64,000 nt of DNA, taken from contig CAZBLW010000002.1 of the NCBI GenBank assembly GCA_964493305.1, positions 76,677 through 140,676 of the forward strand. Direction: 5' to 3'. Within the stretch, counting starts at the first letter, position 1. Each line of letters begins with the position of its first letter. Both the position numbers and the translations under genes were made by a program. Under the pieces are notes generated by a model. It worked only from the letters and a program-made list of their open reading frames with translations, did no database searches and was not told the origin of the DNA. The stretch comes from an uncultured Gammaproteobacteria bacterium. GTDB lineage: Bacteria > Patescibacteriota > Patescibacteriia > S139-126. This document shows, piece by piece, positions 9,902-61,108 of this stretch.

Positions 9902-9950
9902 GAAATAAATTATTAATTACTAATGAATTTTTAATTCTAGATTCTTCACC

Positions 9951-9998
9951 CTGTTAAATTGCTACGCACCGCCTGAGGCGGATTTAACAGGGTCAATT
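9951..9998 (-). promoter_or_regulatory. Long hairpin in the cbiM 5' region / downstream of tRNA-Arg
   Basis: ccctgttaaat...(cgcc tga ggcg)...atttaacaggg: an 11-bp perfect outer stem with an inner GC stem. No U-run on the minus strand. Confidence 0.35.
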
Positions 9999-10007
9999 CT
10001 AATTATC

Positions 10008-10082
10008 TGGTACCCCCGAGAGGAATCGAACCTCTATATCCAGCTTAGAAGGCTGGTGTTCTATCCGTTGAACTACAGGGGC
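10008..10082 (-). tRNA. tRNA-Arg (anticodon TCT)
   Basis: Reverse complement GCCCCTGTAGTTCAACGGATAGAACACCAGCCTTCTAAGCTGGATATAGAGGTTCGATTCCTCTCGGGGGTACCA. Anticodon loop CTTCTAA, T-loop TTCGATT, CCA encoded. Confidence 0.75.
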
Positions 10083-10182
10083 AGGTTATTATAATTATTA
10101 TTTTTTTAAAGCTTAGTCCCGCCACCAGGGCGGGATGCTCAATTTTGTATCTCCTCGCTTTGACTCGGAGACAAAATTGGCA

Positions 10183-10216
10183 AAGGCTGGTGTTCTATCC
10201 GTTGAACTACAGGGGC
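10183..10216 (-). repeat. Exact 34-nt duplicate of the 5' half (nt 1-34) of tRNA-Arg(TCT)
   Basis: aaggctggtgttctatccgttgaactacaggggc is identical to 10049-10082. The copy ends inside the anticodon loop. Confidence 0.8.
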
Positions 10217-10221
10217 TAAAC

Positions 10222-10342
10222 CTTATAAAAATATCTAAAAAATTGAGAAAGGTCAAGATAAATAATTATAAATTTTCAATTATAAATTATAAATGGACTA
10301 ATCTTGTGTTTATAATTTACAATTTATAATTTAAAATTAATT
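10222..10342. repeat. AT-rich direct and inverted repeats 'ataaattataaat' adjacent to the recombinase gene (possible arm-type sites)
   Basis: aattataaattttcaattataaattataaatgg and tttataatttacaatttataattt are reiterated between the tRNA fragment and the recombinase stop. Confidence 0.4.
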
Positions 10343-12454: not shown

Positions 12455-12596
12455 TTTAACAAATAATAAAACAAAATTTTTGGGTTTTAGGTGAGGCATG
12501 TTATTTGAAGTATTGTGGAAATTTTTATTTTCAGAATAGTTCAAATAACTCAAAGTCCGACCTAAAATTTATTGATTTTGTGGAAAGGTAATTTTT

Positions 12597-16204: not shown

Positions 16205-16350
16205 TAGGGATGTTGATATGTGGATAAGTTGTTAATAAATTTGCTAAATTTGAACAATTAAATTGTTCATTTTTTTTATAAAATAACCATTATTTATCGA
16301 CATATTTTTAAATTTATTTAATATTAGCCAAAATTAATAGTATAAATATA

Positions 16351-16379
16351 TTGACTTTTGCCAAAAATGGTGATATAAT
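16351..16379 (+). promoter_or_regulatory. Near-consensus sigma70 promoter with no downstream ORF
   Basis: TTGACT, 17-nt spacer, TATAAT. It sits in a 636-bp ORF-free gap. Confidence 0.5.
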
Positions 16380-16385
16380 AAAGAT

Positions 16386-16722
16386 ATAAAGTACTTTGCC
16401 AAAAAATTATTCCAAACCAATAATTTTGGAGTAATTTTTTCTCCCTAACCGGATTTTATGATCCGACCATAAGACAAAACAAAAACAAAAATTGAAAAAG
16501 GGACCATTTTCTACAAAAGAAAAGGAAAACCCACCAAGGTTAGGAAGTAAAAGCCTCAAGTCGGAACAGGCGTAAAACTGCCATTTTAAAGAAAATACAA
16601 ATATTTACTTAATAATTTAAGTGAAAATTTGTTCAAGAAATGGCAATAAACGCCGGAGTTACTCAGCCACATAATATTTTTATATATCAAAGGGCGCCGG
16701 TAACCCCGGCGTCTTTTTTATT
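16386..16722 (+). ncRNA. Candidate small noncoding RNA of about 340 nt between the orphan promoter and an intrinsic terminator (identity unknown)
   Basis: No ORF on either strand. It contains several hairpins (cggat..atccg; tgccattt...aaatggca) and six A-rich GGA motifs. It ends with the terminator gcgccgg taacc ccggcg TTTTTT. Confidence 0.35.
16692..16722 (+). terminator. Rho-independent terminator
   Basis: GC-rich stem gcgccgg/ccggcgtc followed by a T6 run. Confidence 0.6.
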
Positions 16723-16840
16723 TAATTTTATTATTATAACATAAAATTTATATTTTGTCAATAATTATTACCTACCTTTCCTGTTTTTTATTTATTAATT
16801 TGCTATAATATAGCTAGGAGAGGTTTTTTTATTTCTATTT

Positions 16841-32977: not shown

Positions 32978-33000
32978 AACTCCTTATATTATTTTGAAAT

Positions 33001-33038
33001 AACAGGTAAAAATTTAAATTTTTACCTGTTTTGTTTTT
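33001..33038 (+). terminator. Rho-independent terminator after the giant gene
   Basis: Perfect 15-bp palindrome aacaggtaaaaattt/aaatttttacctgtt followed by ttgttttt. Confidence 0.65.
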
Positions 33039-33063
33039 ATGGGTTTTTATGGTATAATTTATT

Positions 33064-35838
33064 ATGAAATATATTTTATTCATGCCCAAAAAATTTAGGC
33101 AATTGATAATAAATAAAACCACTTTTGTCAGCCTGACTTTGTTATTAATAACAGTAGGTGTGTTTTTTGTTTTTCAGGGTGCCAATGCATCTGATTTTTT
33201 TAGTGCTGTATTTGCTGGTGTTACTGATCCAATAGGTTTCTTGGGGAAACTTTTGTTGGGTTTATTTTTAATCATTATTCAGTTTTTAGGAGTACTTTTT
33301 GTGTTTTTCGTGGGCATAATGATTGATATTGCTCAGTTTAATACCTTCATCAATATGCCCATGGTAGTTACTGGTTGGGGCTTAGCCAGAGATGTGGCTA
33401 ATATGTTTTTTATTGTAGTTCTCTTGATAATCGCTTTTTCTACTGTACTTAAGATAAGTTCTTACCATTATCAAAAAACATTGACCAAGTTGTTGATCAT
33501 GGCAATTTTGGTAAATTTTTCCAAGCTCATTGCCGGATTTTTGATAGATTTTTTTCAAGTGGTAATGTTGACTTTCGTCAACGGATTTAAAGATGTAGCC
33601 GGAGGTAATTTAGCACAAGGTTTTGGTATTTATGAAATGCTATCCCAAGCACCTGGTATTACTGATTCCAGCTCTTTGCAAGGGGGTTTTGTAGTAGCTG
33701 GTGCTTTAGCAGTAGTGATGATATTAGTTGCTGATATGGTGATACTAGTAATGATCGCGGTGTTATTATGGCGTATTGCTATGTTGTGGGTATTGGTGAT
33801 CATTTCACCACTGGCTTATTTGTCTTATGCCTTTATGCCCAAATATTGGTCACAGTGGTGGCAAATGTTTTTTCAGCATTTAATTTCTGGCCCAGTAATA
33901 GCTTTCTTTTTATGGTTGGCATTACTTACGATGCAACAAGGAGAGGTAGCTAATCAATTTTCATCTAAAGGAACGGGCGAATTACAAAGTGAAATGTCTA
34001 GAATCATCCCTTCTAATGTTGACCAAAGCGTACTTTTAAATTATATGGTGGTCATGGCTTTATTGTTGGGAGGACTAGCAATTTCGCAAAAAGTAGCCGC
34101 TCAATCCGGTGGCGCAGTTGGCAATTTTGCTCAACGCGTGCAAAAAGTAGGTAACAAAGCAGCTTTGATTGGCACAGGTGTAGCCGCTGCTGGTTGGGCT
34201 TTGAAAAAAGCCCCAGGGTATTTAAACGAAAGGCAAGCTGCAATTACTGGCATTTCTTTGAATTACAAAGATTGGAAACAATCATATGATACATCCAGAA
34301 CAAGAACCAAACGGAAAAGAATGTCTAAGGCTTTGGGAAATATTGATGAAATTACCGAGCGAGGTATAGCCAATACGGTAATGGATAGGGTATTTTTACG
34401 TAGAACTAGATCTGGTTGGGCAGCTCGTGATGCATCAGATGCTAAAAAAGAGATAGAAGGTTTGGAAGCAAGAATAGCTACACCAAACTTAGGAAAACAA
34501 TACCGTCGTGAATTAGAAACAAATTTGGCGACCAATAAAACAGAATTGGAAAAAATAAATACAGAGCAAGGCGACTTTGAAAAAACGAGAAAAGAAGAAT
34601 GGGATAAGATTTATCAAGAAAATCAAAATCAGGGTGATTGGGACGAAAGAAAAGCCAAGACCGCATTTGATAGTGAAACAGACAATCAGAGTAGGGAGAG
34701 ATTAGATCGGAGAAATTTATTATCTGAAGAGAATAAAGAAATAGAAACACTATTGAGTGAAGACGATGAGACTTTGGCCAAAAGAAAACAAACTGAAATT
34801 AGAGAAAATATTACTGAGTTAGAAAAAGAATTAAAAGTAAAAATAAATGCCAAAGCCCCAGAAGCTGAGATAGACAAAATCAGAGACCAGATAGCTGGTT
34901 TGGAGGCAAATTTACAATTAAAACCTTTGAGTTCTGAAGATATTGCTACTATGAGAGAAAAGATTGATGAATTAAGAAGCTACAGTCTCCAACAAGATAT
35001 GAAAAAAACAAAATTAATGCCCGAGACTGGATATTGGCGAGCAGCCAGAGCTAGAGAAACAGCAGCTGAGGAATATAAAAAAGTGCAGTTTGAAGAAAAT
35101 TCTGATGTTTTGGTTGAATCTTTGAAAAAAGCAGTATTGGATAAAGATCGTCCACGCATCGAGGCTATTACTATGAAATTAGCTAAAGATGGAAATTTCA
35201 ATGAAGCTTTATTGAGTTATGGTTATGGAGACGGTAAGGATGGCATGGGTTCAACGAAGAAATTTTTTGAAGAAATTGTTAAAGGTAAAGCTGGTTTTAG
35301 TGATCAAGATATGCATCGTCTGGCTAGTGATGTTTCATATAATTGTGAAAGTGTAAATCATTGGAATCAAGCTAGAATTAATACTAAAGAAAACGGAAAG
35401 TATAAATGGTTTAGCGAAGCTGAACATTCATTGGCAGCTGTTACTGAAATGGAAAAGAAACACCAGCAAATGCAAGCGAGGAGTTTTGGTAGATTGGCAG
35501 TAGGAGGAGAAGAGTATAATCCAAAAACGGGTAAAATGGAATATGGTCTTAGTCCGTTGGGCGCTATGTATTATAAAAGAAATGGTATGGATTTATTTGC
35601 CAATGATCCAAAGAATATTCAAACTAGCACCATAGTCAATTTATATAAATCTGAGATTGAAAGAAATGAATTAAGTCAGATGGAAATGAGGGGTTTATTA
35701 CCAAATGGTTTTGTAGACAAACTTAAAGAATTGGTTAAAACGAGAAAGTTAGATAAATTAGATGATACAGTCAAGGCAAGCGTAGAAGATTACGAAAGAG
35801 CTGTCAGTGAAATGAATAATATGCGTAATATTTCATAA
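33064..35838 (+). CDS. VirB6/TrbL-like polytopic membrane protein with a long charged coiled-coil C-terminal domain (putative T4SS channel component)
   Basis: About eight TM helices in the first 330 aa, then Lys/Glu-rich coiled coil. TATAAT lies 5 nt before the ATG, so the transcript looks leaderless. It is located with VirB4 and PrgI-like genes. Confidence 0.45.
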   Translation: MKYILFMPKKFRQLIINKTTFVSLTLLLITVGVFFVFQGANASDFFSAVFAGVTDPIGFLGKLLLGLFLIIIQFLGVLFVFFVGIMIDIAQFNTFINMPMVVTGWGLARDVANMFFIVVLLIIAFSTVLKISSYHYQKTLTKLLIMAILVNFSKLIAGFLIDFFQVVMLTFVNGFKDVAGGNLAQGFGIYEMLSQAPGITDSSSLQGGFVVAGALAVVMILVADMVILVMIAVLLWRIAMLWVLVIISPLAYLSYAFMPKYWSQWWQMFFQHLISGPVIAFFLWLALLTMQQGEVANQFSSKGTGELQSEMSRIIPSNVDQSVLLNYMVVMALLLGGLAISQKVAAQSGGAVGNFAQRVQKVGNKAALIGTGVAAAGWALKKAPGYLNERQAAITGISLNYKDWKQSYDTSRTRTKRKRMSKALGNIDEITERGIANTVMDRVFLRRTRSGWAARDASDAKKEIEGLEARIATPNLGKQYRRELETNLATNKTELEKINTEQGDFEKTRKEEWDKIYQENQNQGDWDERKAKTAFDSETDNQSRERLDRRNLLSEENKEIETLLSEDDETLAKRKQTEIRENITELEKELKVKINAKAPEAEIDKIRDQIAGLEANLQLKPLSSEDIATMREKIDELRSYSLQQDMKKTKLMPETGYWRAARARETAAEEYKKVQFEENSDVLVESLKKAVLDKDRPRIEAITMKLAKDGNFNEALLSYGYGDGKDGMGSTKKFFEEIVKGKAGFSDQDMHRLASDVSYNCESVNHWNQARINTKENGKYKWFSEAEHSLAAVTEMEKKHQQMQARSFGRLAVGGEEYNPKTGKMEYGLSPLGAMYYKRNGMDLFANDPKNIQTSTIVNLYKSEIERNELSQMEMRGLLPNGFVDKLKELVKTRKLDKLDDTVKASVEDYERAVSEMNNMRNIS

Positions 35839-35843
35839 TTTTT

Positions 35844-37196
35844 ATGCCTGTAGAAAATAAATTAATCAACTTAGCAAGCACGGAAGTTTATCAAGCTCTT
35901 ACAATACATTTACAAAATGTAGTTGATGAGTGGCAGTTTGAAGAAGCAGAAAAATTTAGAATATTTTTTCAATTTTATCTAGAAAATAATCCAGATTTTG
36001 AAAAAAAATACCCCAATGAATTTAAAACCTACAATAATTTTTTTATTAAAACAAATTTTTTAACCTTAAATCAACTAGCTTTACCAGAGTTGGTAGTTTT
36101 TATGAAAGATCATTGGGTAGAGCAGTATGATATACCGTTTTATACCGACAGCCAAGCGACGATCTTTTTTGATTTATTTGATGCTTGTTTAATGGGCGAG
36201 TTGATATATGAAGAAAGGGATGAGTGGAAGAAAAAAATTGTTCAATCTTTAAGAAGTAATAGTCAAGTTTTTTTTGTAGCTAGTAAAGGAATAAATTTGC
36301 CAGATAATAGAGTGTCAGTAGCAGAATTAATGGTTAATTTTGAAAATCAACTAGTAAATAAAGATTTTGGTGTTGTTGCAATTACCAACTATCTTGATAA
36401 AGCCCAAAAAGAATTTGGTTTTGATGAATTGGTAAGAAATAAAATTGGTCATTTACTTAAATTTTATAAAGTACTAAATACTTCCTCCATGGATGCGGAA
36501 GGCGTAGAAGAAGTTATGCTGTATATTGATGAAGCTGACAATAAATTGAAAGTATTGAAAAAGGGTGTTATTGAAGAGATTAGAATGGATAAAATAAGCG
36601 AGTTTGAAAAAAGTATCAAGCAAATTTTTGAAATCAGAAATCAAACTGCAGATCAGCCCATCAAAGAGAAAGAATTTAGTTATCAAGCATTGATGCAGTC
36701 CTATAATTTAAATAAATTTTCCTGGCAGAAAATAGTATTGGAAGCGGATAATTTAATTGATTACAATAAAAAAACATTGGAGTTTAAAAATAGTTTTCAT
36801 CAAGCTATCAATGATAAAAATAATATAATATTAATCGCTCATTTATTGGTATTGGCCAGAAATGGATACTTAGATGAAATTTTTGAACGTGATGATAAGA
36901 TAAAAGAGATATTTAAAAAACATTTAGCTAAAAAGTTTACGGAAAAAATTGCTGATCATTTTGAAAAAAATTTACGCGAGCCGGTTTATTTATCTTATTT
37001 CTTACAGCACATTTTAAAAGATATTCTTAAACTTGATGAAAATGAATCAGCGGTATTGGCGATAAAATTGGTCAATGAGTTAAAACGCGCGGGTGATAAA
37101 CAGTATTTACCGATAGCTTATGGAGACATGAAATCAGGGATGTTTAAATGGAAAGGAATAATTGATAAAGGTGATAGGTTGGAGCTAGCGGATTAA
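35844..37196 (+). CDS. Hypothetical cytoplasmic protein (450 aa) in the T4SS-like locus
   Basis: No TM helices and no nucleotide-binding motif. Translationally coupled to the upstream gene (5-nt gap). Confidence 0.4.
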   Translation: MPVENKLINLASTEVYQALTIHLQNVVDEWQFEEAEKFRIFFQFYLENNPDFEKKYPNEFKTYNNFFIKTNFLTLNQLALPELVVFMKDHWVEQYDIPFYTDSQATIFFDLFDACLMGELIYEERDEWKKKIVQSLRSNSQVFFVASKGINLPDNRVSVAELMVNFENQLVNKDFGVVAITNYLDKAQKEFGFDELVRNKIGHLLKFYKVLNTSSMDAEGVEEVMLYIDEADNKLKVLKKGVIEEIRMDKISEFEKSIKQIFEIRNQTADQPIKEKEFSYQALMQSYNLNKFSWQKIVLEADNLIDYNKKTLEFKNSFHQAINDKNNIILIAHLLVLARNGYLDEIFERDDKIKEIFKKHLAKKFTEKIADHFEKNLREPVYLSYFLQHILKDILKLDENESAVLAIKLVNELKRAGDKQYLPIAYGDMKSGMFKWKGIIDKGDRLELAD

Positions 37197-37324
37197 AAAT
37201 AAAAATTATAAATTATCAATTTTAAATTTTAAATGAATTATAAAATTATTAAATTTTAAAATTGATTAATAATTGATAATTTAAAATTAATAATTATTTA
37301 AATTTATCTGCTATAATAACTAGT
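37197..37324. repeat. AT-rich palindromic intergenic repeat (ttatcaattttaaat / aaattttaaaattgattaataattgataa)
   Basis: Inverted repeats of attgataat/attatcaat and aattttaaatttt units. It ends in TATAAT, 7 nt before the next ATG. Confidence 0.5.
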
Positions 37325-38500
37325 ATGGAAGAACAAATACCAAAAAATATAAATGAAGAAAAATTAGATCTTGATGTTTCTGATGAAATTGTAGTCAAAG
37401 ATGAACAAGGTAATTTTCGAGTTTTAATCGGTGGTAGGTTGGAAGATTTACCAGCCGGTTTTGAAGTAGTAGAGAAAAAACCAACCGCGCCATCTAGTGA
37501 ATTATTTACCCAAGAAGGTTTAGTTAGCGAAGAAGAGTCAGCTGAACAATTAATGCCACCACCTCCGACTATTTGGCAAAAACAAGCTGGAGCGGCATTT
37601 TATTTTCATCCTGATGATGAAGAAGAAGTCAATCAAATTGCCGCAGACAAAGGTCTGGAAGCAAAAATTGATTTAGATCCAGCGGTTGATGAAATTATTA
37701 CCTTGAGTGGCGTCAGGCTTGCCAGTGAAAACAGCACAAAAAAAGTAAAAAATATCTTACTTGCCCGACTGAAACATGTTAGAGAGCAGGCAGAAACCAG
37801 AGATGCTCTGACTAGGTCAATGGCTGAAGGTGGAGCTGGTTTAAGTGAATCTGAAGCTGATGTTCTGATGTCTTTAGTGACGGAAAAAATTGAACAAATT
37901 GAAGCTGGTAAATATTCGCCACCAGCATCTTCGGAACTGGATAATTTAATAAAACAAGCTGACGATGTTTATAAATTCAATGAAGCAGATCAAGGACCGC
38001 ATGATAGATTGGCTGACACTTTAGCTCAAGTTAAACCAGAATTTACCCACCAACCCCAATGGCAAGAACCGGAGATAAAACAAGCTCCTAGTGAAATAAT
38101 AAATCCACCCCGTCCCAAAAGACCAATTCCAACAGATGTGAGACCAAGAGTGAGTGATGTTAGACCTATAGAAAGGGTGCGGGGACCGATTGAAGAGTTG
38201 AAATATATGAATTTAGCTGAGCTTCATCGTATCGGCACCAGTGCTTTGGATAATATTAGTCATATCAAGGATAAGATTGATGCACTAGAAGAAGAATCTT
38301 TCAACAAGAAAGTTGAAGGTATCAAAGCTTGGCGCCAATCACCACTTTATAATATGTATTTGGATATTGGCCGACAAAGTATGGAACAGGGAAAATCAAT
38401 CAGCCAAGTGATTAGAGAGCGAGAGCAGTTGGGCGAGGATATTTTATCAGTACAAGAGTTTGAAAAAATATCGGATTTGAATCAAGAGTTGAGGTATTAG
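37325..38500 (+). CDS. Acidic hypothetical protein (391 aa)
   Basis: Glu/Asp-rich with predicted coiled coil. Its stop codon is donated by the downstream palindromic repeat. Confidence 0.4.
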   Translation: MEEQIPKNINEEKLDLDVSDEIVVKDEQGNFRVLIGGRLEDLPAGFEVVEKKPTAPSSELFTQEGLVSEEESAEQLMPPPPTIWQKQAGAAFYFHPDDEEEVNQIAADKGLEAKIDLDPAVDEIITLSGVRLASENSTKKVKNILLARLKHVREQAETRDALTRSMAEGGAGLSESEADVLMSLVTEKIEQIEAGKYSPPASSELDNLIKQADDVYKFNEADQGPHDRLADTLAQVKPEFTHQPQWQEPEIKQAPSEIINPPRPKRPIPTDVRPRVSDVRPIERVRGPIEELKYMNLAELHRIGTSALDNISHIKDKIDALEEESFNKKVEGIKAWRQSPLYNMYLDIGRQSMEQGKSISQVIREREQLGEDILSVQEFEKISDLNQELRY

Positions 38501-38529
38501 CTTATGGCTTATGGCTTTTAGCTTTTAGG
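38497..38529. repeat. REP-like repeat, left-arm type (TTAGCTTATGGCTT...TTAGCTTTTAGG)
   Basis: A member of the 'agcttatagctt' family. It pairs with 38881-38917 on the other side of the four-helix-bundle gene. Confidence 0.55.
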
Positions 38530-38538
38530 TAGAAGAAA

Positions 38539-38901
38539 ATGGTAGAATCATATAAAGAATTGATAGTTTGGCAAAAAGGAATGGATTTAGTAGTTGCCAC
38601 ATATAAATTAATTGGTAAATTTCCTAAAGAAGAAATATTTGGATTGTCGATGCAGATGAAAAGGTCAGCAGTTTCAATCTCATCCAATATAGCTGAAGGC
38701 AGAAATAGAGGTACTAGAAAAGATTTTATTTATTTTTTAAGAATAGCATACGGATCTGGAGCTGAGTTGGAAACACAAATCGAGTTATCAAAAAGATTAT
38801 TTAATATAACATCAGAGAGTTATGCTGAAGTAGACGAGTTATTAATAGAAGTGATGAAAATGCTTAATAAAATGATAGCTAAGCTACAAGCTAATAACTA
38901 A
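38539..38901 (+). CDS. Four-helix-bundle protein ('23S rRNA intervening-sequence protein' family)
   Basis: MVESYKELIVWQKGMDLVVATYKLIGKFPKEE...SSNIAEG...FLRIAYGSGAELETQIELSKRL is characteristic of this family. The gene is embedded between inverted REP-like arms. Confidence 0.7.
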   Translation: MVESYKELIVWQKGMDLVVATYKLIGKFPKEEIFGLSMQMKRSAVSISSNIAEGRNRGTRKDFIYFLRIAYGSGAELETQIELSKRLFNITSESYAEVDELLIEVMKMLNKMIAKLQANN

Positions 38902-38917
38902 AAGCTATAAGCTAATT
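38881..38917. repeat. REP-like repeat, right-arm type (AAGCTACAAGCTAA...AAGCTATAAGCTAAT)
   Basis: Reverse complement of the left-arm motif. It ends ...taattacc immediately before the PrgI-like ATG. Confidence 0.55.
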
Positions 38918-38920
38918 ACC

Positions 38921-39364
38921 ATGCAACAATTTTTAGTCCCACAATTTATTGATGTTGAAAGTAAAATATTAGGCCCAATCACCGTCAGACAATTTGTGAT
39001 TATGATCGTAGTGATGGGAGCTTTGTTTACTTATTTTAAGACCTTGGATTTTTCCGGATTTTTACTGGCTTCAATTTTTACTGTTGCCCTGGGAGCAGCT
39101 TTTGGTTTTTTAAAAGTCAATGGTGCCCCTTTTCATATTTTTTTACTCAATGTTATCCAAACTATCATGCGCCCATCTTTACGGGTGTGGGCCAAAGACA
39201 ATGCTACTTTAGCAGATAAACAACCAGATACTGACAAAAAAGAAGATGATTTATTGAATACTGTAAAAGTTATCAAATCGCCTGTTAAACAAATAAATTC
39301 CACGCGACTATCGGAATTATCTTTAGTAGTAAATACAGGCGGTTATTATAAAGGAGAAAACTAA
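38921..39364 (+). CDS. PrgI/VirB3-like small membrane protein of Gram-positive-type T4SS
   Basis: MQQFLVPQFIDVESKILGPITVRQFVIMIV... matches the PrgI-family N-terminal signature (VPQ.ID.E.KI.GP.T.RQF). Two TM helices. Immediately upstream of VirB4. Confidence 0.5.
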   Translation: MQQFLVPQFIDVESKILGPITVRQFVIMIVVMGALFTYFKTLDFSGFLLASIFTVALGAAFGFLKVNGAPFHIFLLNVIQTIMRPSLRVWAKDNATLADKQPDTDKKEDDLLNTVKVIKSPVKQINSTRLSELSLVVNTGGYYKGEN

Positions 39365-39365
39365 A

Positions 39366-40043
39366 ATGAAATCAAAAAAATTGGCCAATAAAAAAGTTTC
39401 TATTTCAACTCAGCAGTATTTGGACATTGCTGAGATTAAAAATGATTCAGTAGTTTTGAAAGATGGCACCTTGCGAGCAGTGCTTTTGGTTTCTTCAATC
39501 AACTTTGCTTTAAAATCAGAGGATGAACAAAACGCTACTATCTCCGCTTATGTTAGTTTTTTAAATGCTTTGGATTTTCCTTTACAGATTGTTATTCAAT
39601 CAAGAAAACTAAATATTGATATTTATTTAGAGCAACTGGCCCAAAGAGAAAGAATGTTGACCAATGAGTTATTGCGTGCGCAAATTAGTGATTATCGCGA
39701 GTATGTTAAAGAATTGGTGGAATTGGGAGAGATTATGAGTAAGCGTTTTTATATTATTGTACCTTATGGTGGTACTGATATTGAAAAACCCAGTTTTTTA
39801 CAAAGATTGTCAGCGGTTTTTACCCCGGCCCGAGTTATTACCTTACAAAAGAAAAAATATGAACAGTATTTGGAGTTGTTGGATAAAAGAGTCGATTTTG
39901 TAATGTCCAATTTAGCTAGCATTGGTTTAACTTCAGTAAAACTTGATACCCAAAGTTTGATTGAGATGTATTACAATACCTACAATATTGATGTTTATGA
40001 ACAACAAAAATTAGCTGATGTTAATAAATTGAGAACCAATTAA
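39366..40043 (+). CDS. VirB4 N-terminal-domain-like protein (possibly the detached N-terminus of the downstream VirB4 ATPase)
   Basis: ...DIAEIKNDSVVLKDGTLRAVLLVSSINFALKSEDEQNATISAYVSFLNALDFPLQIVIQSRK... resembles the N-terminal region of Firmicutes VirB4/TcpF/Orf16 proteins. The gene ends 95 bp before the VirB4 ORF and is in a different frame. Confidence 0.45.
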   Translation: MKSKKLANKKVSISTQQYLDIAEIKNDSVVLKDGTLRAVLLVSSINFALKSEDEQNATISAYVSFLNALDFPLQIVIQSRKLNIDIYLEQLAQRERMLTNELLRAQISDYREYVKELVELGEIMSKRFYIIVPYGGTDIEKPSFLQRLSAVFTPARVITLQKKKYEQYLELLDKRVDFVMSNLASIGLTSVKLDTQSLIEMYYNTYNIDVYEQQKLADVNKLRTN

Positions 40044-40049
40044 TAAAGT

Positions 40050-40126
40050 TTTTAGTTGTTAGCTTTTAGCTTTTAGATAAATACAATTAAGAAGTCATAA
40101 GCTAAAAGCCAAAAGCTATAAGCTAA
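40050..40126. repeat. REP-like palindromic element (left arm ttagttgttagcttttagcttttag; right arm ctaaaagccaaaagctataagctaat)
   Basis: A long hairpin lying exactly between the two VirB4 pieces. It ends ccctaattacc before the ATG, the same junction as at 38921. Confidence 0.6.
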
Positions 40127-40138
40127 TCCCTAATTACC

Positions 40139-42031
40139 ATGTTTAACCCCAAACAAGCCTTACAAAAGAAGAGACCAGTCAAACAAATACTTTCTCGTCG
40201 TGAGCAGGCAGAAGTTGAGGTAGAAAAAACTTTGGATGAAAAACAGTTGTTGGAAGCAGAAAAAGTATTTCGTGAAGGCACCATAAAAATTCGGGATATT
40301 ATCGCCCCGGCTGCTTTCAAAGTCACTCCATCGTATTTGGAATTGGGATCAAAATTTGTCCGCAGTATTTTTGTGATTAATTATCCTCGATATATTTCAG
40401 TAGGTTGGTTTGCGCCAGTAATTAATTATTCTGCCACTATGGATATTGGAATGTTTTTTTATCCCATTCCAGCTGAAGTAGTTTTGAAGCAATTGAAAAA
40501 TAAAGTCGGTGTGTTGGAAGCACAACTTATTGCGGATGCCGAAAAAGGCGCTCCCCGTGATCCAATCCGAGAAACAGCTTTGCAGGATATTGAAAAATTG
40601 CGCGATGATCTTACTCAAGGTATAGAAAAATTTTTCCAATACGCATTGTATGTCACGATGTATGCCAACTCCAAAGATGAGCTGGATAATTTAACAGAAA
40701 AAATCGAATCATTATTTGGGGGTAAACTGGTCTATACCAAAAGAACATTGTATCAAGCCGAACAAGGATTCAATTCTACTTTACCTTTGGGTAATGACGA
40801 ATTGATGATTTCATTTAATATGAATTCTTCACCAGTGGCTTCTTCTTTTCCTTTTATATCTTCAGAGTTAACCAGTGATGAAGGTATACTTTATGGTATC
40901 AATCGTCATAATAACAGCCTGATTTTATTTGATCGATTTTCTTTACAAAATGCCAATTCGGTCGTATTTGCCACATCGGGTGCTGGTAAAAGTTATGCTA
41001 TCAAACTCGAGGTATTGCGCAGTTTGATGATGGGTACTGATGTAATAATTATTGATCCAGAAAAAGAGTATAAGCATTTGTCCGATGCGGTCGGGGGAAC
41101 TTATATTAACATTTCACTTTCTAGCGATAGTAAAATAAATCCCTTTGACCTACCGCGTAAAGTTGATGATATGAAGCCAGCAGACATTATCCGCAGTGCT
41201 GTTATAACCCTCAAGGGTTTAATGAGACTCATGCTTGGCAATCTTACCCATCAGGAAGATTCAATTATTGATCGGGCACTGCTGGAAACTTATGCCAAAA
41301 AAGACATTACTCCAAGTTCGGATTTATCTCAGGTTGAACCACCTTTGATGTCTGATTTTGAAGAAGTATTATCCGGTATGGAGGGGGGAGATGATTTGGT
41401 CTTGCGTTTGAAAAAATATACGGAAGGTACTTTTTCCGGTCTGTTCAATAGCCCTACCAATATCGATTTAGACAATCAATTAATCACTTTTTCCGTTAGG
41501 GATTTGGAAGACGAGTTAAGGCCAATAGCAATTTATACCATTGTCAATTATATTTGGAACATTGTCCGATCAGAGTTGAAAAAAAGAATTTTAGTTATTG
41601 ATGAAGCTTGGTGGCTGATGCAAAATGATGATAGCGCCAAATTTATTTATGCTTTGGTAAAACGTTGTCGTAAATATTATCTAGGTGTTACCACCATTAC
41701 CCAGGATGTAAATGACTTTTTACGCAGTCCTTATGGTCAAGCAATTGTAACCAATTCATCTTTGCAACTTTTACTTAAACAATCACCCGCTTCAATCGAT
41801 GTAGTTAAAAAGACTTTTATGTTGACTGAAGGTGAAAAATATTTGTTACTGGAGTGTGGTGTTGGTGAGGGTATATTTTTTGCCGGCTCTAAGCACGCAG
41901 CTATAAAAATTGTGGCTTCCTATACTGAGGATCAGTTGATTACCTCTGATCCTAAACAGTTATTGGAAATCGAAGAAGCTAAAAGAGAATTCAATCGTCA
42001 GCAAAAACAAGCTGAAGAGATGGAGATTTAA
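40139..42031 (+). CDS. virB4: VirB4/TraC/PrgJ-family T4SS ATPase
   Basis: IAPAAFKVTPSYLELGSKFVRSIFVINYPRYISVGW region. Walker A ATSGAGKS. Walker B ILVIDEAWW. 630 aa. Confidence 0.8.
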   Translation: MFNPKQALQKKRPVKQILSRREQAEVEVEKTLDEKQLLEAEKVFREGTIKIRDIIAPAAFKVTPSYLELGSKFVRSIFVINYPRYISVGWFAPVINYSATMDIGMFFYPIPAEVVLKQLKNKVGVLEAQLIADAEKGAPRDPIRETALQDIEKLRDDLTQGIEKFFQYALYVTMYANSKDELDNLTEKIESLFGGKLVYTKRTLYQAEQGFNSTLPLGNDELMISFNMNSSPVASSFPFISSELTSDEGILYGINRHNNSLILFDRFSLQNANSVVFATSGAGKSYAIKLEVLRSLMMGTDVIIIDPEKEYKHLSDAVGGTYINISLSSDSKINPFDLPRKVDDMKPADIIRSAVITLKGLMRLMLGNLTHQEDSIIDRALLETYAKKDITPSSDLSQVEPPLMSDFEEVLSGMEGGDDLVLRLKKYTEGTFSGLFNSPTNIDLDNQLITFSVRDLEDELRPIAIYTIVNYIWNIVRSELKKRILVIDEAWWLMQNDDSAKFIYALVKRCRKYYLGVTTITQDVNDFLRSPYGQAIVTNSSLQLLLKQSPASIDVVKKTFMLTEGEKYLLLECGVGEGIFFAGSKHAAIKIVASYTEDQLITSDPKQLLEIEEAKREFNRQQKQAEEMEI

Positions 42032-42036
42032 TAAAT

Positions 42037-42102
42037 CAGCTTTTAGCTTATAGCTTTTAGAAGGTTAAAACTACAAGCTATAAGCTACAAGCTATAAGCT
42101 AA
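42037..42102. repeat. REP-like palindromic element (cagcttttagcttatagcttttag ... ctacaagctataagctacaagctataagctaaaa)
   Basis: Same repeat family, forming a hairpin of at least 20 bp after VirB4. Confidence 0.6.
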
Positions 42103-42107
42103 AATAT

Positions 42108-42695
42108 ATGAACCCCCAAATAAAAAAATTACTCATTATATTGTTGGTACTAGTGGTACTTTTTGGATTATTTTTTGGTTGGTGGTGGTGGAAACAGAGA
42201 GAACAACCCGTAGTTAGTCAACCACCAATAACAAATCAACCATCAGCTACTACTACTGTGCCTGACGAGCAGGTGCAAGAAACTCTATCCCAACAGATTG
42301 TTGGCAAGTCAGAACAGGAAATTGGCGATTATGCTTCTATTGTCAATAACAGTAGATATTTTGTCGAACGATTTGGTAGTTTTTCCACTGGTGCCGCTTG
42401 GCAAAATATTGATGATATAAGATCAGTGGTAACTGAACAAGTTTACAATGATTTATCGAGTTTACGCGCCAGTACAGTTGGTGAGCAAATGGATTATTCA
42501 CTCAGTACCAAAAGTTTATCAGTCAGTGTAGAATCGCAAACAGAAAATTCTGCGGTTGTTTTGGTTAAGACCCAAAAAAGAGAGGTGAGTGAAGGCAATG
42601 AGCGCGTTTTTTATCAAGATATAGATTTACAATTGACTAAACAAGGAAATAGTTGGTTGGTATCAGATTTTAATTTAGGTCCAGAGAAAAAATAA
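42108..42695 (+). CDS. Bitopic membrane protein with an NTF2-like periplasmic domain (VirB8/TcpC-like, putative)
   Basis: N-terminal TM helix, Pro/Thr linker, then a domain of about 130 aa ending ...ERVFYQDIDLQLTKQGNSWLVSDFNL, typical of NTF2-fold conjugation proteins. Confidence 0.35.
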   Translation: MNPQIKKLLIILLVLVVLFGLFFGWWWWKQREQPVVSQPPITNQPSATTTVPDEQVQETLSQQIVGKSEQEIGDYASIVNNSRYFVERFGSFSTGAAWQNIDDIRSVVTEQVYNDLSSLRASTVGEQMDYSLSTKSLSVSVESQTENSAVVLVKTQKREVSEGNERVFYQDIDLQLTKQGNSWLVSDFNLGPEKK

Positions 42696-42696
42696 T

Positions 42697-43263
42697 ATGG
42701 TTGATAATGAAACTAATTATAAACGTGAATTAAATAGACAACGGATTAGCAGTTCACGTTCCCAGGGTATGAATGAAATGTTAGCTAGTAATAGATTTAA
42801 TAAACAAGTTGATAGTAATCAAGATCAAACAGGACTTTTAAAAAAAACTAGTGATTTAGAAAAAAGTGCTAAGAGAATTAGTAAGGGAGCAGCACAAGTT
42901 GCAGCGGGCAATAAAGTTGCAGGCGCAGTAAATATTGCCCGAGGAGCCAAAGATATTGGTGGAGAATTTTTAGCAGGTGGTTTTATGCGTGTTGGGGTGA
43001 TGTGGTATTTTATGATGTTAGTAGCTGGTGTAAAAGACGCTTTTGATGTTGCTTCGTTTGAACTTGTTTGGTGGCTAGATTGGATAATTGATATTGTGGT
43101 AGCAGGCCTCTTATGGACTTATTTATTTATGCACGATGCTGGTAAGAAAAAAGTGGTTGGTTTTATTGCTCCGATACTTGAGATATTACCATTTACTGGC
43201 ATTATACCTTGGTGGTCAATTAGCGTTTTGTATGTTGGTATAGGTAAAATGAATAAGAAATAA
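42697..43263 (+). CDS. Hypothetical polytopic membrane protein (188 aa)
   Basis: At least four hydrophobic helices. Translationally coupled to its neighbours. Confidence 0.4.
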   Translation: MVDNETNYKRELNRQRISSSRSQGMNEMLASNRFNKQVDSNQDQTGLLKKTSDLEKSAKRISKGAAQVAAGNKVAGAVNIARGAKDIGGEFLAGGFMRVGVMWYFMMLVAGVKDAFDVASFELVWWLDWIIDIVVAGLLWTYLFMHDAGKKKVVGFIAPILEILPFTGIIPWWSISVLYVGIGKMNKK

Positions 43264-44673
43264 ATGAAGAAAATAAAAATATACAAAAAATTATTTATAA
43301 TTATTTTTTTAACTTTACTTGGTTTTGGTGTGGTTGATTTTGTTTATGCACAAAATTTACCTGGTGATTGTTGGACACAAGAACAGTGTTTAGGGCAAGC
43401 TGGTAGTGACACAGCAAACTATTTTTTTAAAGAAGGTGATAGTGATTTTCAAAAGTATTGTAAGGCAAGCGATGGAGCTCAGTATGGTAAGTGTTATGTT
43501 AAACCTGATGAAGTAAATTTATCGGTTCCTATACCTGATGTGCAAAGCGGCGGATCCTTGCAAAAAGTTTCTCAGTTTCCTGAATATTTAAAAGTAATAT
43601 ATACCTATTTTATATATGTTATTGGTATTATTGCTGTTGCTTATATTGGTTGGGGTGGTTTTGAATGGATGATGGCAGCTGGTAGTGCAGAAAAAATTGC
43701 CAAAGCCAAGGATACTATCCAAGGTGCCTTTATTGGTTTGTTATTGGCCGTTGGTTCTTATGTGTTGTTAGGAACTATTAATTCTCGTTTAGTAAATTTT
43801 GATTATGTTAGAGTGGAAAGGATTAAACCTCATTTTCTCATGAATTATTGTGTTGATACCGAAAGTGTACAAAAATGGATAAAAGTAGGTGATGAGAGTA
43901 AAGTGAAAGTAAATAAAGAAGATACCTGGTGTAATTCTTCATATTATTCTGAAATAAATTCAAATAATACCTGTCAGGGGTTAAAATGTTCAGAAGGTTT
44001 ATATTGTTTACCTAAATTAAATACCGGCGGTTCATCAGATGCAGGTTTTGAGTGTGTTAATTTAAGTACAATTAGCTCTAGGTGTCAGTCTCAAGACACA
44101 GATACCTGTGAATTATTTGATCAATATTTACAAAATGTTCAAAAGACTGTGTTAAATTCTGATTTTTCTAGCAAAGCTTGTCGTTTACAAATTATTGTTA
44201 CCCAAGCGCTGATTGAAATAGGTGCAGGCAATGCAAATTCTTGTTATTTAGGCCAAATATATCAAGAATCTGATTATAGTTCGGTAGAAGTTTTAGATAA
44301 TAATAGTAATGTTACCGAGACTTATAGTATGACCAGGATTAATTGTAGCCAGGGTCAGGGTATATGTACTGAAAGTGGTGAACCGCGTGTACTTGAATGG
44401 TTTAAATTGCCAACCGTTCAAGTAGAAGTTAGTTGTACTGATTCAAATAGAGCGTCTAGAAATATGGATTCAATTTGTATAAGTTCAGAGCAATCAAAAT
44501 GTTCCGCCAATAAACCAAGTACCTCAGTATCTGATTATTTTTATGCAACAGGTGATAATATTTATTATGACTGGGTAGAAGTTAATTGTACCACGGTACC
44601 ACCTTTAGGTGGGTCATGTAGTAATAAATGTTGGGTTATGATTGCGAATTATTATGATTTCGATGCAGGTTAA
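43264..44673 (+). CDS. Secreted Cys-rich protein with a central pilin-like hydrophobic segment (469 aa), paralogous in that segment to the 47127 protein
   Basis: Signal peptide. Shared motif VAYIGWGGFEWMMAAGSAEKIAKAKDTIQGAFIGLLLAVGSY, compared with VAYMAFGGMQWLAAAGSAEGINKAKETIRDSFIGLLLVVSSY in 47127. More than 25 Cys. Confidence 0.5.
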   Translation: MKKIKIYKKLFIIIFLTLLGFGVVDFVYAQNLPGDCWTQEQCLGQAGSDTANYFFKEGDSDFQKYCKASDGAQYGKCYVKPDEVNLSVPIPDVQSGGSLQKVSQFPEYLKVIYTYFIYVIGIIAVAYIGWGGFEWMMAAGSAEKIAKAKDTIQGAFIGLLLAVGSYVLLGTINSRLVNFDYVRVERIKPHFLMNYCVDTESVQKWIKVGDESKVKVNKEDTWCNSSYYSEINSNNTCQGLKCSEGLYCLPKLNTGGSSDAGFECVNLSTISSRCQSQDTDTCELFDQYLQNVQKTVLNSDFSSKACRLQIIVTQALIEIGAGNANSCYLGQIYQESDYSSVEVLDNNSNVTETYSMTRINCSQGQGICTESGEPRVLEWFKLPTVQVEVSCTDSNRASRNMDSICISSEQSKCSANKPSTSVSDYFYATGDNIYYDWVEVNCTTVPPLGGSCSNKCWVMIANYYDFDAG

Positions 44674-44693
44674 AAAATTGAAGAAATTTACTT

Positions 44694-45965
44694 ATGAATA
44701 GAAAAAAAATTATACAAATTATTATTTTTGCAATCATTGTTGTTGGTTTGGCGTATTTACTTTGGTCAATGTTTTGGCAACCTGAAGGGCCAGTAACTCC
44801 TACTGATACTCCGCCTGGTCAAACCGGACAATTACCTGATATTGGTGAAGGTCCGCCTGCGGGAGTAGTAATTGATCCGATTACGGGATTACCTATTTCT
44901 GGTGAAGTAGTACAACCTGGCGGGCAAACATCTACTACTACTGGCCAACCTACTACCAATCAACCAACTATTAGTGATCGGGCGATTGGCGGTTTAACCA
45001 CAGCCAAAACGGTGGTGAATAAAGATATCTTAGGGATTAAACCAATTGGTGATGGTAAAAGTTTCAATTATTATGATACAGCTGACAATAAATTTTATCG
45101 TTTAACAGCCAGTGGCGAAGTCCAAGCTTTGTCAGATAAAAGGTTTTTCAATGTCGATTCTGTTGCCTGGTCGCCAGACGGCAATAAGGCAATTTTGGAA
45201 TACCCTGATAGTACCAATATTTTTTACGATTTTACTCAAGATAAGCAAGTTACCCTGCCACGACAAATGACCGAGTTTAATTTTTCTCGGGGTGGCGAAA
45301 ATATTGGTTTTAAGTGGCAGTCAGATTTACCCAATGATGACTGGCTAGGTATAGCTACTCCCGATGGTAGCGAAATAAAATTTATTGAACCTATGAACAA
45401 TGCCGAAGAAGATGTACAGGTTGCTTGGTCGCCGAATAATCAAGTAATTGCTTTTTACAGGGAGGGTAAAGGATTGAATCAGTCCGAAGTATACTTGATT
45501 GGACAATATGGTGAAAATTTTAAATCTTTAGCTGTTCAAGGGAGAGGTTTTGAAGGCGAGTGGTTGGCTGATGGTAAGAATGTATTGTATCAAATATATT
45601 CAGATGCTTCAGGTTCTAGACCGATGCTGTGGGTTACGCGGGCTGATGGGGATAATATTGGATTAAATAACAATTCTTTAGGTGTACAAACCTGGCTGGA
45701 TAAATGTGCTATTTCTGGTGCCAGTGCTTATTGTGCAGTGCCAGAATATTTACCGGAGGGAGCAGCTTATGTTCCTGAAGTAGCTGATACGATTCCTGAT
45801 TTGTTTTACCGGATCGATTTAACCACTGGTGCTAAAACGCTACTGGCTAAACCAGTTGGCGATTTATCACAGTACACCGCTAGTCAAGTGATGGTTTCGC
45901 AAGATGAAAGTGAACTTTATTTTGTCGACAAAGCCACTGGTGGACTTTATAGTATAAATCTTTAG
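44694..45965 (+). CDS. Membrane-anchored beta-propeller protein (TolB/WD40-like 'SPDG' repeats)
   Basis: N-terminal TM, Pro/Thr/Gly linker, repeated AWSPDGNKAILEY / AWSPNNQVIAFY blades. Confidence 0.45.
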   Translation: MNRKKIIQIIIFAIIVVGLAYLLWSMFWQPEGPVTPTDTPPGQTGQLPDIGEGPPAGVVIDPITGLPISGEVVQPGGQTSTTTGQPTTNQPTISDRAIGGLTTAKTVVNKDILGIKPIGDGKSFNYYDTADNKFYRLTASGEVQALSDKRFFNVDSVAWSPDGNKAILEYPDSTNIFYDFTQDKQVTLPRQMTEFNFSRGGENIGFKWQSDLPNDDWLGIATPDGSEIKFIEPMNNAEEDVQVAWSPNNQVIAFYREGKGLNQSEVYLIGQYGENFKSLAVQGRGFEGEWLADGKNVLYQIYSDASGSRPMLWVTRADGDNIGLNNNSLGVQTWLDKCAISGASAYCAVPEYLPEGAAYVPEVADTIPDLFYRIDLTTGAKTLLAKPVGDLSQYTASQVMVSQDESELYFVDKATGGLYSINL

Positions 45966-46023
45966 AATTTTTAATTTTTAATTTTATAATTTTTCAAATA
46001 ATTTTTAATTTTTAAATAATAAA
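45966..46023. repeat. AT-rich inverted repeat (ttttaatttttaatttt), left flank of the four-helix-bundle cassette
   Basis: Its reverse complement, aaaattaaaaatta, occurs on the other side of the 46024 gene. Confidence 0.45.
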
Positions 46024-46362
46024 ATGAAATATGACCTTGAGGAGAGGGTCGCTAAATTTGGAGAAGAAACTATTAAGTTTATAAGATTAGTACAAAAAGA
46101 TATAGTAGTTTCTCCAATTATTACCCAGTTAATAAAATCAAGTACTAGTATTGGAGCTAACTATATGGAAGCCAATCAAGCTAGTTCAAAAAAAGATTTT
46201 AAAAATAAAATAAGAATTTGTCAAAAAGAATCCAACGAAATAAAACATTGGCTGAGAATGCTAGCGGTTGCCACCCCAAATCATAAAGAAAAATGTAAAC
46301 AGTTATGGCAAGAAGCTCATGAATTAACTCTCATATTTGCCAAGATTTCTAAGAATATTTAA
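46024..46362 (+). CDS. Four-helix-bundle protein (23S rRNA IVS-protein family), second copy
   Basis: ...TSIGANYMEANQASSKKDFKNKIRICQKESNEIKHWLRML... is the family signature. 112 aa. Flanked by inverted AT-rich repeats. Confidence 0.65.
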   Translation: MKYDLEERVAKFGEETIKFIRLVQKDIVVSPIITQLIKSSTSIGANYMEANQASSKKDFKNKIRICQKESNEIKHWLRMLAVATPNHKEKCKQLWQEAHELTLIFAKISKNI

Positions 46363-46423
46363 GTTTAAAAATTTTGATTTATTTATAAAATTAAAAATTA
46401 CAAAATTATAAAATTTATTTATT
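46363..46423. repeat. AT-rich inverted repeat (aaaattaaaaattacaaaatt), right flank of the four-helix-bundle cassette
   Basis: Complementary to the 45966-46023 flank. Confidence 0.45.
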
Positions 46424-47152
46424 ATGTCTAAAAAATTAAATAAAAAACCAAACAAGACAAATAGCAAAGCATCCACTTCAATTTGGATTTTTTTTGGCGC
46501 TGGTGTTGTCTTGTTGTTTATTGGTATTATTTTGTTTGTTTTGGCAGAAGCAGCTGTAAATATTGATAATCGTCCAGCTACTGTTAAATATGCTGCTGGT
46601 CCAAAAATAGCCTATGGCGACCCCTTGATAAGAGATGCTAAGATTTTATACCCCAAAGTTTTACCCGATGATGTTAGAAAAGGCGCTGGCTCTGCCAAAG
46701 TTACGATTTTTTATTACTGTGATCTTTTTAGTCCGTTGTGTAAAGATCAACAAAATGAAATCTATAAGTTATGGGCGTTATATCCGGAAAACATTTTGCG
46801 TATTGTTTGGAAAGGAACCGCTTCAACCAACGAAGGTATGCTAGCTCAGCAAGCAGTATATTGCGCCAATGCGCAAGGTAAATTTTGGGAATATCAATAC
46901 GAGGTTTTAAAAAATCAAGCCAACATAAATTTAAAATTTTTAGAATCACTAGCCACTACTCTCAATTTATCTTTGGTAGAATTTAATACTTGTTTAAATG
47001 AGGGTCAGATGGAACAAAAAGTATATGAGAATAATATTGAGGCCACTGATTTGGAGATAGATGCCGTACCCTATTTTTTCATAGACAATACACCTTATCG
47101 AGGATATTTTTCTAGTGAAGAATTAAGTGAAATCATCAATGAGCAGTTATAA
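46424..47152 (+). CDS. Membrane-anchored DsbA-like thioredoxin-fold protein with an atypical active site
   Basis: N-terminal TM. TIFYYCDLFSPLCKD stands where DsbA has F..CP.C (here S-P-L-C). DsbA helical-insert signature VYCANAQGKFWEYQYEVLKNQ. Confidence 0.55.
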   Translation: MSKKLNKKPNKTNSKASTSIWIFFGAGVVLLFIGIILFVLAEAAVNIDNRPATVKYAAGPKIAYGDPLIRDAKILYPKVLPDDVRKGAGSAKVTIFYYCDLFSPLCKDQQNEIYKLWALYPENILRIVWKGTASTNEGMLAQQAVYCANAQGKFWEYQYEVLKNQANINLKFLESLATTLNLSLVEFNTCLNEGQMEQKVYENNIEATDLEIDAVPYFFIDNTPYRGYFSSEELSEIINEQL

Positions 47153-61084: not shown

Positions 61085-61108
61085 AAACTGGTATAATTAA
61101 AGTAGTAT

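Follow-up and report, generated by a model that had tools for sequence, protein, structure and literature searches.

In the plasmids pGO1, pSK41 and pIP501, a gene for a ~200–230-aa homolog of the VirB4 N-terminus (TrsD/TraD) is located 3' of a VirB3/PrgI-like gene and 5' of a gene for a ~630–660-aa DUF87/P-loop VirB4 (TrsE/TraE), and Patescibacteria possess the same arrangement (TrsD and VirB4). Quiñonero-Coronel et al. (2025; PMC12102498) reported that TrsD is a remote homolog of the VirB4 N-terminus, and that 2,272 TrsD homologs are present in Patescibacteria, mostly adjoining virB4; in Ca. S. epibionticum ML1, the type IV secretion system (T4SS) genes, including the TrsD homolog, are listed as essential (PMC12102498). 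Here, we analyzed a 64-kb stretch of DNA (hereafter, the window) from a Patescibacteria (Candidate Phyla Radiation, CPR) bacterium, in which two open reading frames with similarity to VirB4, ORF1 and ORF2, are separated by a 95-nt spacer that folds into a hairpin. A sequence-only reading of this locus had proposed that virB4 is split by the insertion of a palindromic repeat, and had left three explanations: a disrupted pseudogene, a functional two-piece VirB4, or a repeat that brings its own translation start. We conclude, with a probability of roughly 0.88, that the locus is a normal chromosomal T4SS operon in which the VirB4 ATPase is encoded by two co-transcribed genes, a trsD-like gene (ORF1) and virB4 (ORF2). 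All coordinates given below are positions in the window; fetched loci carry L-numbers, and the percentages beside them are sequence identities.

We compared both ORFs with full-length VirB4 proteins and with family models. ORF1 residues 15–214 aligned with residues 8–215 of a fused 797-aa homolog (P0226; 44% identity), and ORF2 residues 47–613 aligned with its residues 226–793 (53% identity), with zero overlap. The same division was observed in the NCBIfam model conju_CD1110, where ORF1 matched model positions 2–121 and ORF2 matched positions 178–730 of 752 (362.6 bits for ORF2, with a cut-off of 325). When the two ORFs were concatenated, they aligned in one stretch to positions 7–726 of TIGR00929 (VirB4_CagE), whereas ORF2 alone covered only positions 239–726. 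No similarity was detected when ORF1 and ORF2 were compared directly. A VirB4-type N-terminal domain is thus present, but it is shared between two polypeptides, and the portion carried by ORF2 is residues 47–243 (P0226 residues 226 to ~420). At the level of sequence, the trsD and virB4 products are strictly complementary and jointly correspond to a full-length VirB4. Among the explanations left by the sequence-only reading, the functional two-piece VirB4 is therefore the one upheld, by this tiling and by the predicted fold of ORF1 described below: ORF1 matches the VirB4 N-terminus rather than an unrelated family, and ORF2 lacks the segment equivalent to ORF1.

The ORF1 translation contains KDGTLRAV...DFPLQIVIQSRK and matched the N-terminal parts of the NCBIfam models VirB4_plasma and conju_CD1110, as well as the TrsD/TraD model NF041427 (E = 1.9e-5, 24.6 bits, residues 5–68 only). 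A PDB sequence search with ORF1 returned a chance match only. The TraC-like family PF26593 is precomputed for every close ORF1 homolog. We then considered the AlphaFold2 (AF2) model of ORF1, which has a mean confidence (pLDDT) of 75.5. Its 14 best PDB matches were all TrwK/VirB4 chains of the R388 T4SS (probability 0.95–1.00, TM 0.37–0.49), and every match below this set had a probability of ≤0.38. In its layout, ORF1 corresponds to TrsD/TraD: a protein of ~200–230 aa that is homologous to the N-terminus of VirB4 and whose gene directly precedes that of a VirB4 lacking this segment.

The ORF2 translation contains IIAPAAFKVTPSYLELG, a Walker A motif (SGAGKS) and a Walker B motif (ILVIDEAW), and its Pfam matches were P-loop_TraG (E = 5e-30), AAA_10 and DUF87. 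Residues 244–602 aligned with PDB 4AG5, the crystallized VirB4 C-terminal domain (E = 5.7e-48). By domain homology, ORF2 is a T4SS ATPase of the VirB4 family, for which ATP hydrolysis, hexamer formation and a role in secretion are predicted. It is encoded together with other T4SS components, with PrgI upstream and a T4SS_pilin protein downstream, and the operon is syntenic in relatives.

We further analyzed how widely the split is distributed. Loci were fetched from 80 species-representative (GTDB) genomes, of which 79 were assessable (contig long enough), with both genes located in each. In all 79, the TrsD-like ORF ends with a stop codon and is followed by a separate virB4 ORF; a fused gene, the intact single ORF for which orthologous loci had been proposed as a check, was found in 0 of 79. 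The gene order prgI-trsD-virB4 was common to all related loci examined. The spacer between trsD and virB4 was ≤30 nt in 55 of the 79 loci, several of which had the –1 or –4 overlaps commonly associated with translational coupling, and ≥85 nt in 17; most loci had no hairpin in this spacer. Among relatives, the spacer ranged from overlaps (nominally to about –29 nt, by a first-start-codon heuristic) to 192 nt, and frame differences of 0, 1 and 2 all occurred. In the window, both ORFs are on the + strand, 95 nt apart, and their frames differ because their start positions differ in phase. ORF lengths in related loci were constant at 225–227 aa (ORF1) and 628–632 aa (ORF2). Against three relatives, dN/dS was 0.03–0.06 for ORF1 and 0.02–0.04 for ORF2 (dS ~0.9–2), a pattern of substitution that places both genes under strong purifying selection.

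The triplet of prgI, a small trsD-like gene and a DUF87-ATPase gene was also found on Clostridium perfringens, Peribacillus and Miltoncostaea plasmids, and the small Peribacillus gene is annotated as trsD. The pair in the window is the published two-gene TrsD/VirB4 form of pGO1-type plasmids and Patescibacteria, that is, an arrangement already known. As in the Patescibacteria systems, it is chromosomal and located in a T4SS operon with a pilin-domain gene. Nothing essential differs from the described TrsD/VirB4 systems, although ORF1 is too divergent for the NCBIfam TrsD cut-off and the lineage of the window has additionally gained hairpin elements in operon spacers. The division is ancient and has been kept across a large clade. 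Adjacent ORFs that tile a known protein around a repeat, therefore, need not be a disrupted gene.

The full-length monoderm VirB4 proteins (the conju_CD1110 family, VirB4 of Mycoplasma integrative and conjugative elements, and the ~790-aa Colwellbacteria type) provide the other comparison. ORF1 and ORF2 are collinear with these proteins and jointly cover them, but form two polypeptides with extra residues at the junction in place of a variable linker of ~15 residues. When ORF1 was searched against 1.84 billion cluster representatives, its homologs were short in 149 of the 150 best representatives, P0226 being the sole long protein. The best 120 homologs of ORF1 (57–95% identity) were all 216–242 aa. 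With P0226 as the query, in turn, 118 of the 120 best matches were 775–807 aa and contained both PF26593 and the P-loop domain; many of these fused proteins are labeled Candidatus Colwellbacteria. The P0226 gene follows prgI in a dnaA-proximal chromosomal operon. Thus, the fused ~790-aa VirB4 is the form of a sister clade (Colwellbacteria-like), and fused and split forms coexist within Patescibacteria according to clade. This coexistence provides a natural system for asking what role the VirB4 N-terminal module plays. Two 'short' VirB4 proteins of ~600 aa within the fused clade (P0289 and P0385) were considered as recent fissions and rejected as artefacts of 100-N scaffold gaps (L095 ~1545–1647 and L096 ~1802–2008).

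An alignment of the fused proteins revealed a non-conserved run of ~15 residues between the parts equivalent to ORF1 and ORF2. Compared with these proteins, the split pair has ~45 extra residues at the ORF2 N-terminus and ~10 at the ORF1 C-terminus. In the AF2 model of P0226, the junction coincides with a dip in confidence (58–59) between a helix (196–207) and a strand (238–241). The variable run and the confidence dip therefore indicate that the break point between trsD and virB4 lies at a poorly conserved linker of the fused protein. The TrsD and VirB4 products presumably assemble non-covalently, together with the PrgI/VirB3 protein encoded just upstream, into a VirB4-like motor.

Several points weigh against this interpretation. 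ORF1 scored far under the TrsD cut-off of NF041427 (24.6 versus 200 bits), and a local Pfam scan of ORF1 returned no family; the family assignment therefore rests on the tiling, the fold and the PF26593 labels of its homologs. For P0226, the AF2 model is of only moderate quality (pLDDT 69.6), and its junction is a dip in confidence rather than a clear disordered linker. That TrsD and VirB4 would physically assemble is predicted from their homology with fused proteins. Either fission or fusion may be the derived state.

The spacer itself contains a strong hairpin, and both the ORF coordinates and the fold statistics agreed with the earlier description of two ORFs in different frames separated by such a structure. 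The arms (~40047–40076 and ~40099–40126) consist of tandem heptamers, with AGCTTWT in the left arm and its complement in the right, and enclose a loop of ~22 nt; the inverted repeats I11–I14 were detected in the spacer. The minimum free energy (MFE) of the fold, –24 kcal/mol, was matched by 0 of 200 dinucleotide shuffles (z = –3.9). An unpaired tail (40127–40138) ends in TAATTACC directly 5' of the virB4 ATG. Orthologous hairpins of this AGCT class were observed in L001–L003 (91%) and L011 (80%), with nearly identical arms, a heptamer-unit indel and unrelated loops. The spacer is 4 nt long in L013 (68%), and is 32 nt long without a palindrome in L004 (63%). The closest relative (L009/L010, 95%) has a different hairpin at the same site, with arms of the TTTTGCA/TTTTAAT type and a 124-aa 23S_rRNA_IVP gene (L009 719–1153) in the loop. 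Because relatives are split with another element or with none at the spacer, the hairpin is secondary to the split: it is a later, lineage-specific occupant of a spacer between genes that were already separate. An Rfam scan of the elements returned no family at gathering thresholds, and at permissive settings only sub-threshold matches resembling miRNA precursors, i.e. generic hairpins.

We considered the possibility that the 95-bp palindrome inserted into a formerly intact virB4 and that one or both pieces are decaying. The different frames of the ORFs, their tiling of a full VirB4 and the recurrence of the intervening repeat in the window are compatible with such a pseudogene. However, all 79 species relatives are split at the same place, mostly without a hairpin and with spacers of ≤30 nt; dN/dS is 0.02–0.06 for both pieces at near-saturated dS; ORF lengths are constant; and the TrsD/VirB4 pair has been published, with TrsD listed as essential in a cultivated relative. 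The disruption proposed in the sequence-only reading can hence be set aside as extremely improbable. Recoding, in which ribosomes would bypass or frameshift across the spacer to produce a single full-length VirB4, merits equally little credence: what speaks for it is only that the ORFs tile the full-length protein, whereas the spacer repeats TAA or TAG at 7-nt intervals and is thereby closed in all frames, related loci differ freely in the length of the spacer and in frame offset, and ORF2 has its own conserved start. A regulatory role for the hairpin, as an attenuator or terminator that sets subunit stoichiometry by keeping virB4 expression below that of trsD, in place of a selfish or processing element, is unlikely, though less so than the preceding explanations. 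A stable stem does lie between the two cistrons, and its arms have been kept while the loop has diverged among the window, L001 and L011, despite a dS of ~1 or more in the flanking genes. Nevertheless, the stems are rich in A and U, and AAUCCCUAAUUACC follows them instead of a U-tract, unlike in an intrinsic terminator (a G+C-rich stem plus a U-tract). A terminator scan of 40044–40138 and 42032–42107 detected no terminator-like site and no T-run, and a promoter/terminator scan of 32800–50100 revealed no enrichment and placed no site within the hairpins, even though canonical terminators with a stem and T-run exist elsewhere in the window (e.g. 33001–33030). Furthermore, in most relatives the two genes overlap or are separated by a very short spacer, and the closest relative (L009) has exchanged the hairpin for an element bearing an IVP gene; this replacement therefore counts against a site-specific regulatory requirement.

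It was also proposed that the right end of the element (…CTAATTACC-ATG) supplies the start codon or initiation region of virB4 and prgI. Identical copies of TAATTACCATG are found at both starts (38913–38923 for prgI and 40131–40141 for virB4), and neither gene has a Shine-Dalgarno (SD) sequence. In all predicted folds, the last 12–14 nt and the AUG of virB4 are unpaired, and therefore the hairpin does not obstruct initiation. The observation that the same element precedes prgI was partly correct: the tail TAATTACC-ATG is common to both sites, but upstream of prgI it belongs to the right arm of a hairpin bearing an IVP gene (left arm 38492–38528), and not to a second compact hairpin. With regard to the start codon, the ORF2 frame opens 12 nt 5' of the ATG, and the ATG and the N-terminus MFNP/MFKP are kept in L004, L009, L011 and L013, whose spacers are different or missing; ATGTTTAA(C/A)CC is conserved where the element is absent. 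The frame opening and the conserved N-terminus therefore indicate that the virB4 start codon is native. The same right-end tail also occurs at 49921–49936, where it adjoins a convergent stop codon and no start codon follows, whereas the copy at 42032 ends differently (...AAGCTAAAATAT-ATG). The absence of an SD at prgI and virB4 is unremarkable, because an SD motif is lacking in ~40 of the window's 47 genes. A repeat-supplied start is accordingly very improbable, and we retain the two-gene operon, with the hairpin as a tolerated occupant of its spacer, as the preferred reading. As a separate observation on initiation in this genome, TATAAT-like hexamers were located 6–10 nt 5' of the ATG at 33064, 37325 and 61109 (33040–33066, 37300–37327 and 61085–61111). 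This placement, together with the presence of an SD in only ~7 of 47 genes, suggests frequent SD-independent initiation on leaderless or short-leader mRNAs.

Table 1. Genes and hairpin elements of the T4SS operon region, with positions in the window
Feature	Position	Strand	Description
prgI (VirB3-like)	38921..39364	+	PF12666 PrgI, E = 2.8e-7, above the curated cut-off; directly 5' of trsD
trsD-like gene (ORF1)	39366..40043	+	225 aa; free-standing equivalent of the first ~215 residues of full-length VirB4
trsD-virB4 spacer	40044..40138	+	95 nt; ORF-less heptamer-repeat hairpin
virB4 (ORF2)	40139..42031	+	630 aa; remaining N-terminal region and P-loop ATPase domain
T4SS pilin-domain protein, same operon	43264..44673	+	PF18895 T4SS_pilin, E = 3.1e-7
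AGCT-class hairpin with 23S_rRNA_IVP gene in loop	38492..38920	+	Arms 38492-38528 and 38880-38916; inverted repeat I2 (33 nt, 82%); tail TAATTACC before prgI ATG
23S_rRNA_IVP gene, 120 aa	38539-38901		In loop of the prgI-upstream hairpin; PF05635, E = 1.9e-36
Second ORF-less AGCT-class hairpin, between virB4 and next gene	42032..42107	+	Arms 42038-42060 and 42071-42093, 91% complementary; -25 kcal/mol, z -4.55
Fourth AGCT-class hairpin, between convergent genes	49833..49921	.	-33.4 kcal/mol, z -3.86; tail AAGCTAATTTCTAATCAC, no start codon after it
AT-class hairpin (heptamer AATTTTW) whose loop encloses the second IVP gene (46024-46362)	45966..46423	+	IVP hidden Markov model match, flank pairing
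ORF-less AT-class palindromic spacer	37197..37324	+	Inverted repeats I2, I6 and I12; fold statistic weak (z -1.2)

The spacer hairpin belongs to a family of elements (Table 1). The motif AGCTTWTAGCTTWTAG (≤2 mismatches) occurred 22 times in the window, compared with 0.41 expected, and its matches were clustered at 38499–38528/38891–38913, 40054–40124, 42038–42107 and 49833–49921. The element is thus a multi-copy extragenic palindrome, with at least four AGCT-class copies in 64 kb in addition to AT-class copies, and the family has colonized several spacers of this operon in a genus-level lineage. The hairpin 3' of virB4 has an ortholog at L001 8658–8744. Two orthologous AT-class spacers displayed reciprocal states: the window is ORF-less at 37197–37324, whereas L001 bears an IVP gene there (3707–4192), and the window bears an IVP gene at 45966–46423, whereas L001 is ORF-less (12491–12580). 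Alignments of AT-class elements are unreliable owing to low complexity, and this comparison relies on two trustworthy features, the conserved gene-end anchors and whether an IVP ORF is present. The reciprocal states suggest that hairpins already in place gained or lost IVP cassettes, or that the elements turn over.

We examined whether IVP genes in the fetched loci are similarly enclosed. Inverted arms of tandem heptamers bracketed 13–14 of the 15 IVP genes, with a unit that varies by copy (GTGAGTA, CGCATAA, CAGAAGT, TTCCAAA and others); IVP genes in hairpin loops were found, for example, at L012 3400–4000 and, several times, in L069 and L086. Flank pairing was stronger for IVP genes than for other genes (Mann–Whitney, p = 4e-6), yet only 4 of the 15 fell below the control 5th percentile; in this test, A/T-rich stems are weak in energy and control genes also neighbor hairpins. 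In other species, 11 of the 17 long trsD-virB4 spacers folded significantly (z ≤ –3.3), mostly with clear arms of heptamer or octamer repeats, while no repeat was evident in the long stem of L087. The arm units in these spacers (L048, L051, L052, L054, L056, L066, L068, L069 and L091) were species-specific, e.g. CGCATAA x13, CTCGTAA, ACGAATG and GAAATAAC, and nearly all of them contain a stop codon, which results in stops in all three frames. Finally, an exact-pattern scan of metagenomes for TAGCTTNTAGCTTTTAG yielded at least 120 loci (L097–L216) with a GC content of 0.34–0.69. A compact palindrome was present in 34 among the loci listed, and no IVP gene was found within 1.9 kb of TAGCTTNTAGCTTTTAG among them. 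AGCT-class palindromes therefore extend well beyond CPR bacteria, are mostly ORF-less outside the lineage of the window, and are not universally linked to IVP genes.

ORF-less intervening sequences (IVSs) are known alongside those that contain an ORF. Warrier et al. (2016; PMC4990558) described IVSs of 23S rRNA with an S23p/IVP ORF in Leptospira and Coxiella; the Coxiella IVS has a terminal inverted-repeat stem, tandem heptamers of variable number and the S23p/IVP ORF in its loop, and RNase III excises it within the stem (PMC4990558). The elements in the window likewise combine a long terminal inverted-repeat stem with tandem heptamers of variable copy number, and an ORF for IVP (PF05635, a four-helix bundle) is located in the loop at 38492–38920, at 45966–46423 and at the trsD-virB4 site of L009, although not in the 40044–40138 copy. 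Unlike the 23S rRNA IVS, which occupies helix 25 or 45, they are located between protein-coding genes, in mRNA spacers; the window contains no rRNA. Intergenic direct repeats of a heptamer (TAACTGA) in Beggiatoaceae and cyanobacteria, which place stops in all three frames before SD-less starts (PMC4679880), and repetitive extragenic palindromic (REP) sequences with their bacterial interspersed mosaic elements (BIME) provide a second comparison. The window elements resemble them in being multi-copy and extragenic, with 7-nt units carrying stops in three frames, often before SD-less starts. They differ in that the arms are inverted arrays within one long hairpin, that the unit differs by genome and by copy, and that IVP genes are associated with them. 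No REP-associated tyrosine transposase (RAYT-type) or other transposase was found among 10 Pfam-scanned proteins of the window.

Given this IVS-like architecture, the hairpins most likely act at the RNA level. By analogy with the rRNA elements, they would fold parts of the polycistronic transcript into long double-stranded stems, and these stems may serve as RNase III substrates, may protect the upstream 3' end, or both; the last ~12 nt and the virB4 AUG would stay free of stem pairing. On the other side, the conservation of the arms could come from DNA-level mechanisms, such as repeat homogenization or protein binding. The hairpins appear to behave as selfish elements with fast turnover that the operon tolerates. 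Based on the reciprocal IVP-bearing and empty states in the window and L001, and on the element replacement in L009, we tentatively propose, as a possibility that is less likely than its alternatives taken together, that the ORF-less and IVP-bearing heptamer-armed hairpins form one family of mobile IVS-like elements colonizing intercistronic spacers of Patescibacteria and, as the metagenome scan suggests, of much GC-richer bacteria. Under this proposal, RNase III would cleave the long stems and thereby convert tightly coupled operons into processed transcripts, IVP would recognize its own heptamer arms, and ORF-less copies such as 40044–40138 would either derive from the IVP cassette by deletion or act as its landing pads. 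The heptamer-hairpin class and its link to IVP in operon spacers are the only part of this locus that might repay further work; if the link to IVSs is true, it would open a way to study what the enigmatic IVP proteins do and how CPR bacteria process operon RNA.

Additional observations were made in the window and in its relatives. Many related metagenome-assembled genome records (L014, L019, L020 and others) are titled 'uncultured Gammaproteobacteria bacterium', while their gene content and nearest named relatives (Falkowbacteria, Uhrbacteria, Buchananbacteria and Parcubacteria) are those of Patescibacteria; the Gammaproteobacteria titles are therefore placeholder mislabels. A gene-free region of 636 nt (16205–16840) had an MFE of –149 kcal/mol (z about –7.9 versus mononucleotide shuffles) and gave no Rfam match above threshold, with only weak sub-threshold matches to small RNAs; a leader or another structured RNA, as yet undescribed, may be located there. 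At 9902–10342, a second, partial copy (~33 nt) of the tRNA at 10011–10082 (– strand) is located beside that tRNA (…GGCTGGTGTTCTATCCGTTGAACTACAGGGGC…), with small G+C-rich hairpins between the two, and it could be an integration remnant (an att-like duplication) or a degraded tRNA copy.

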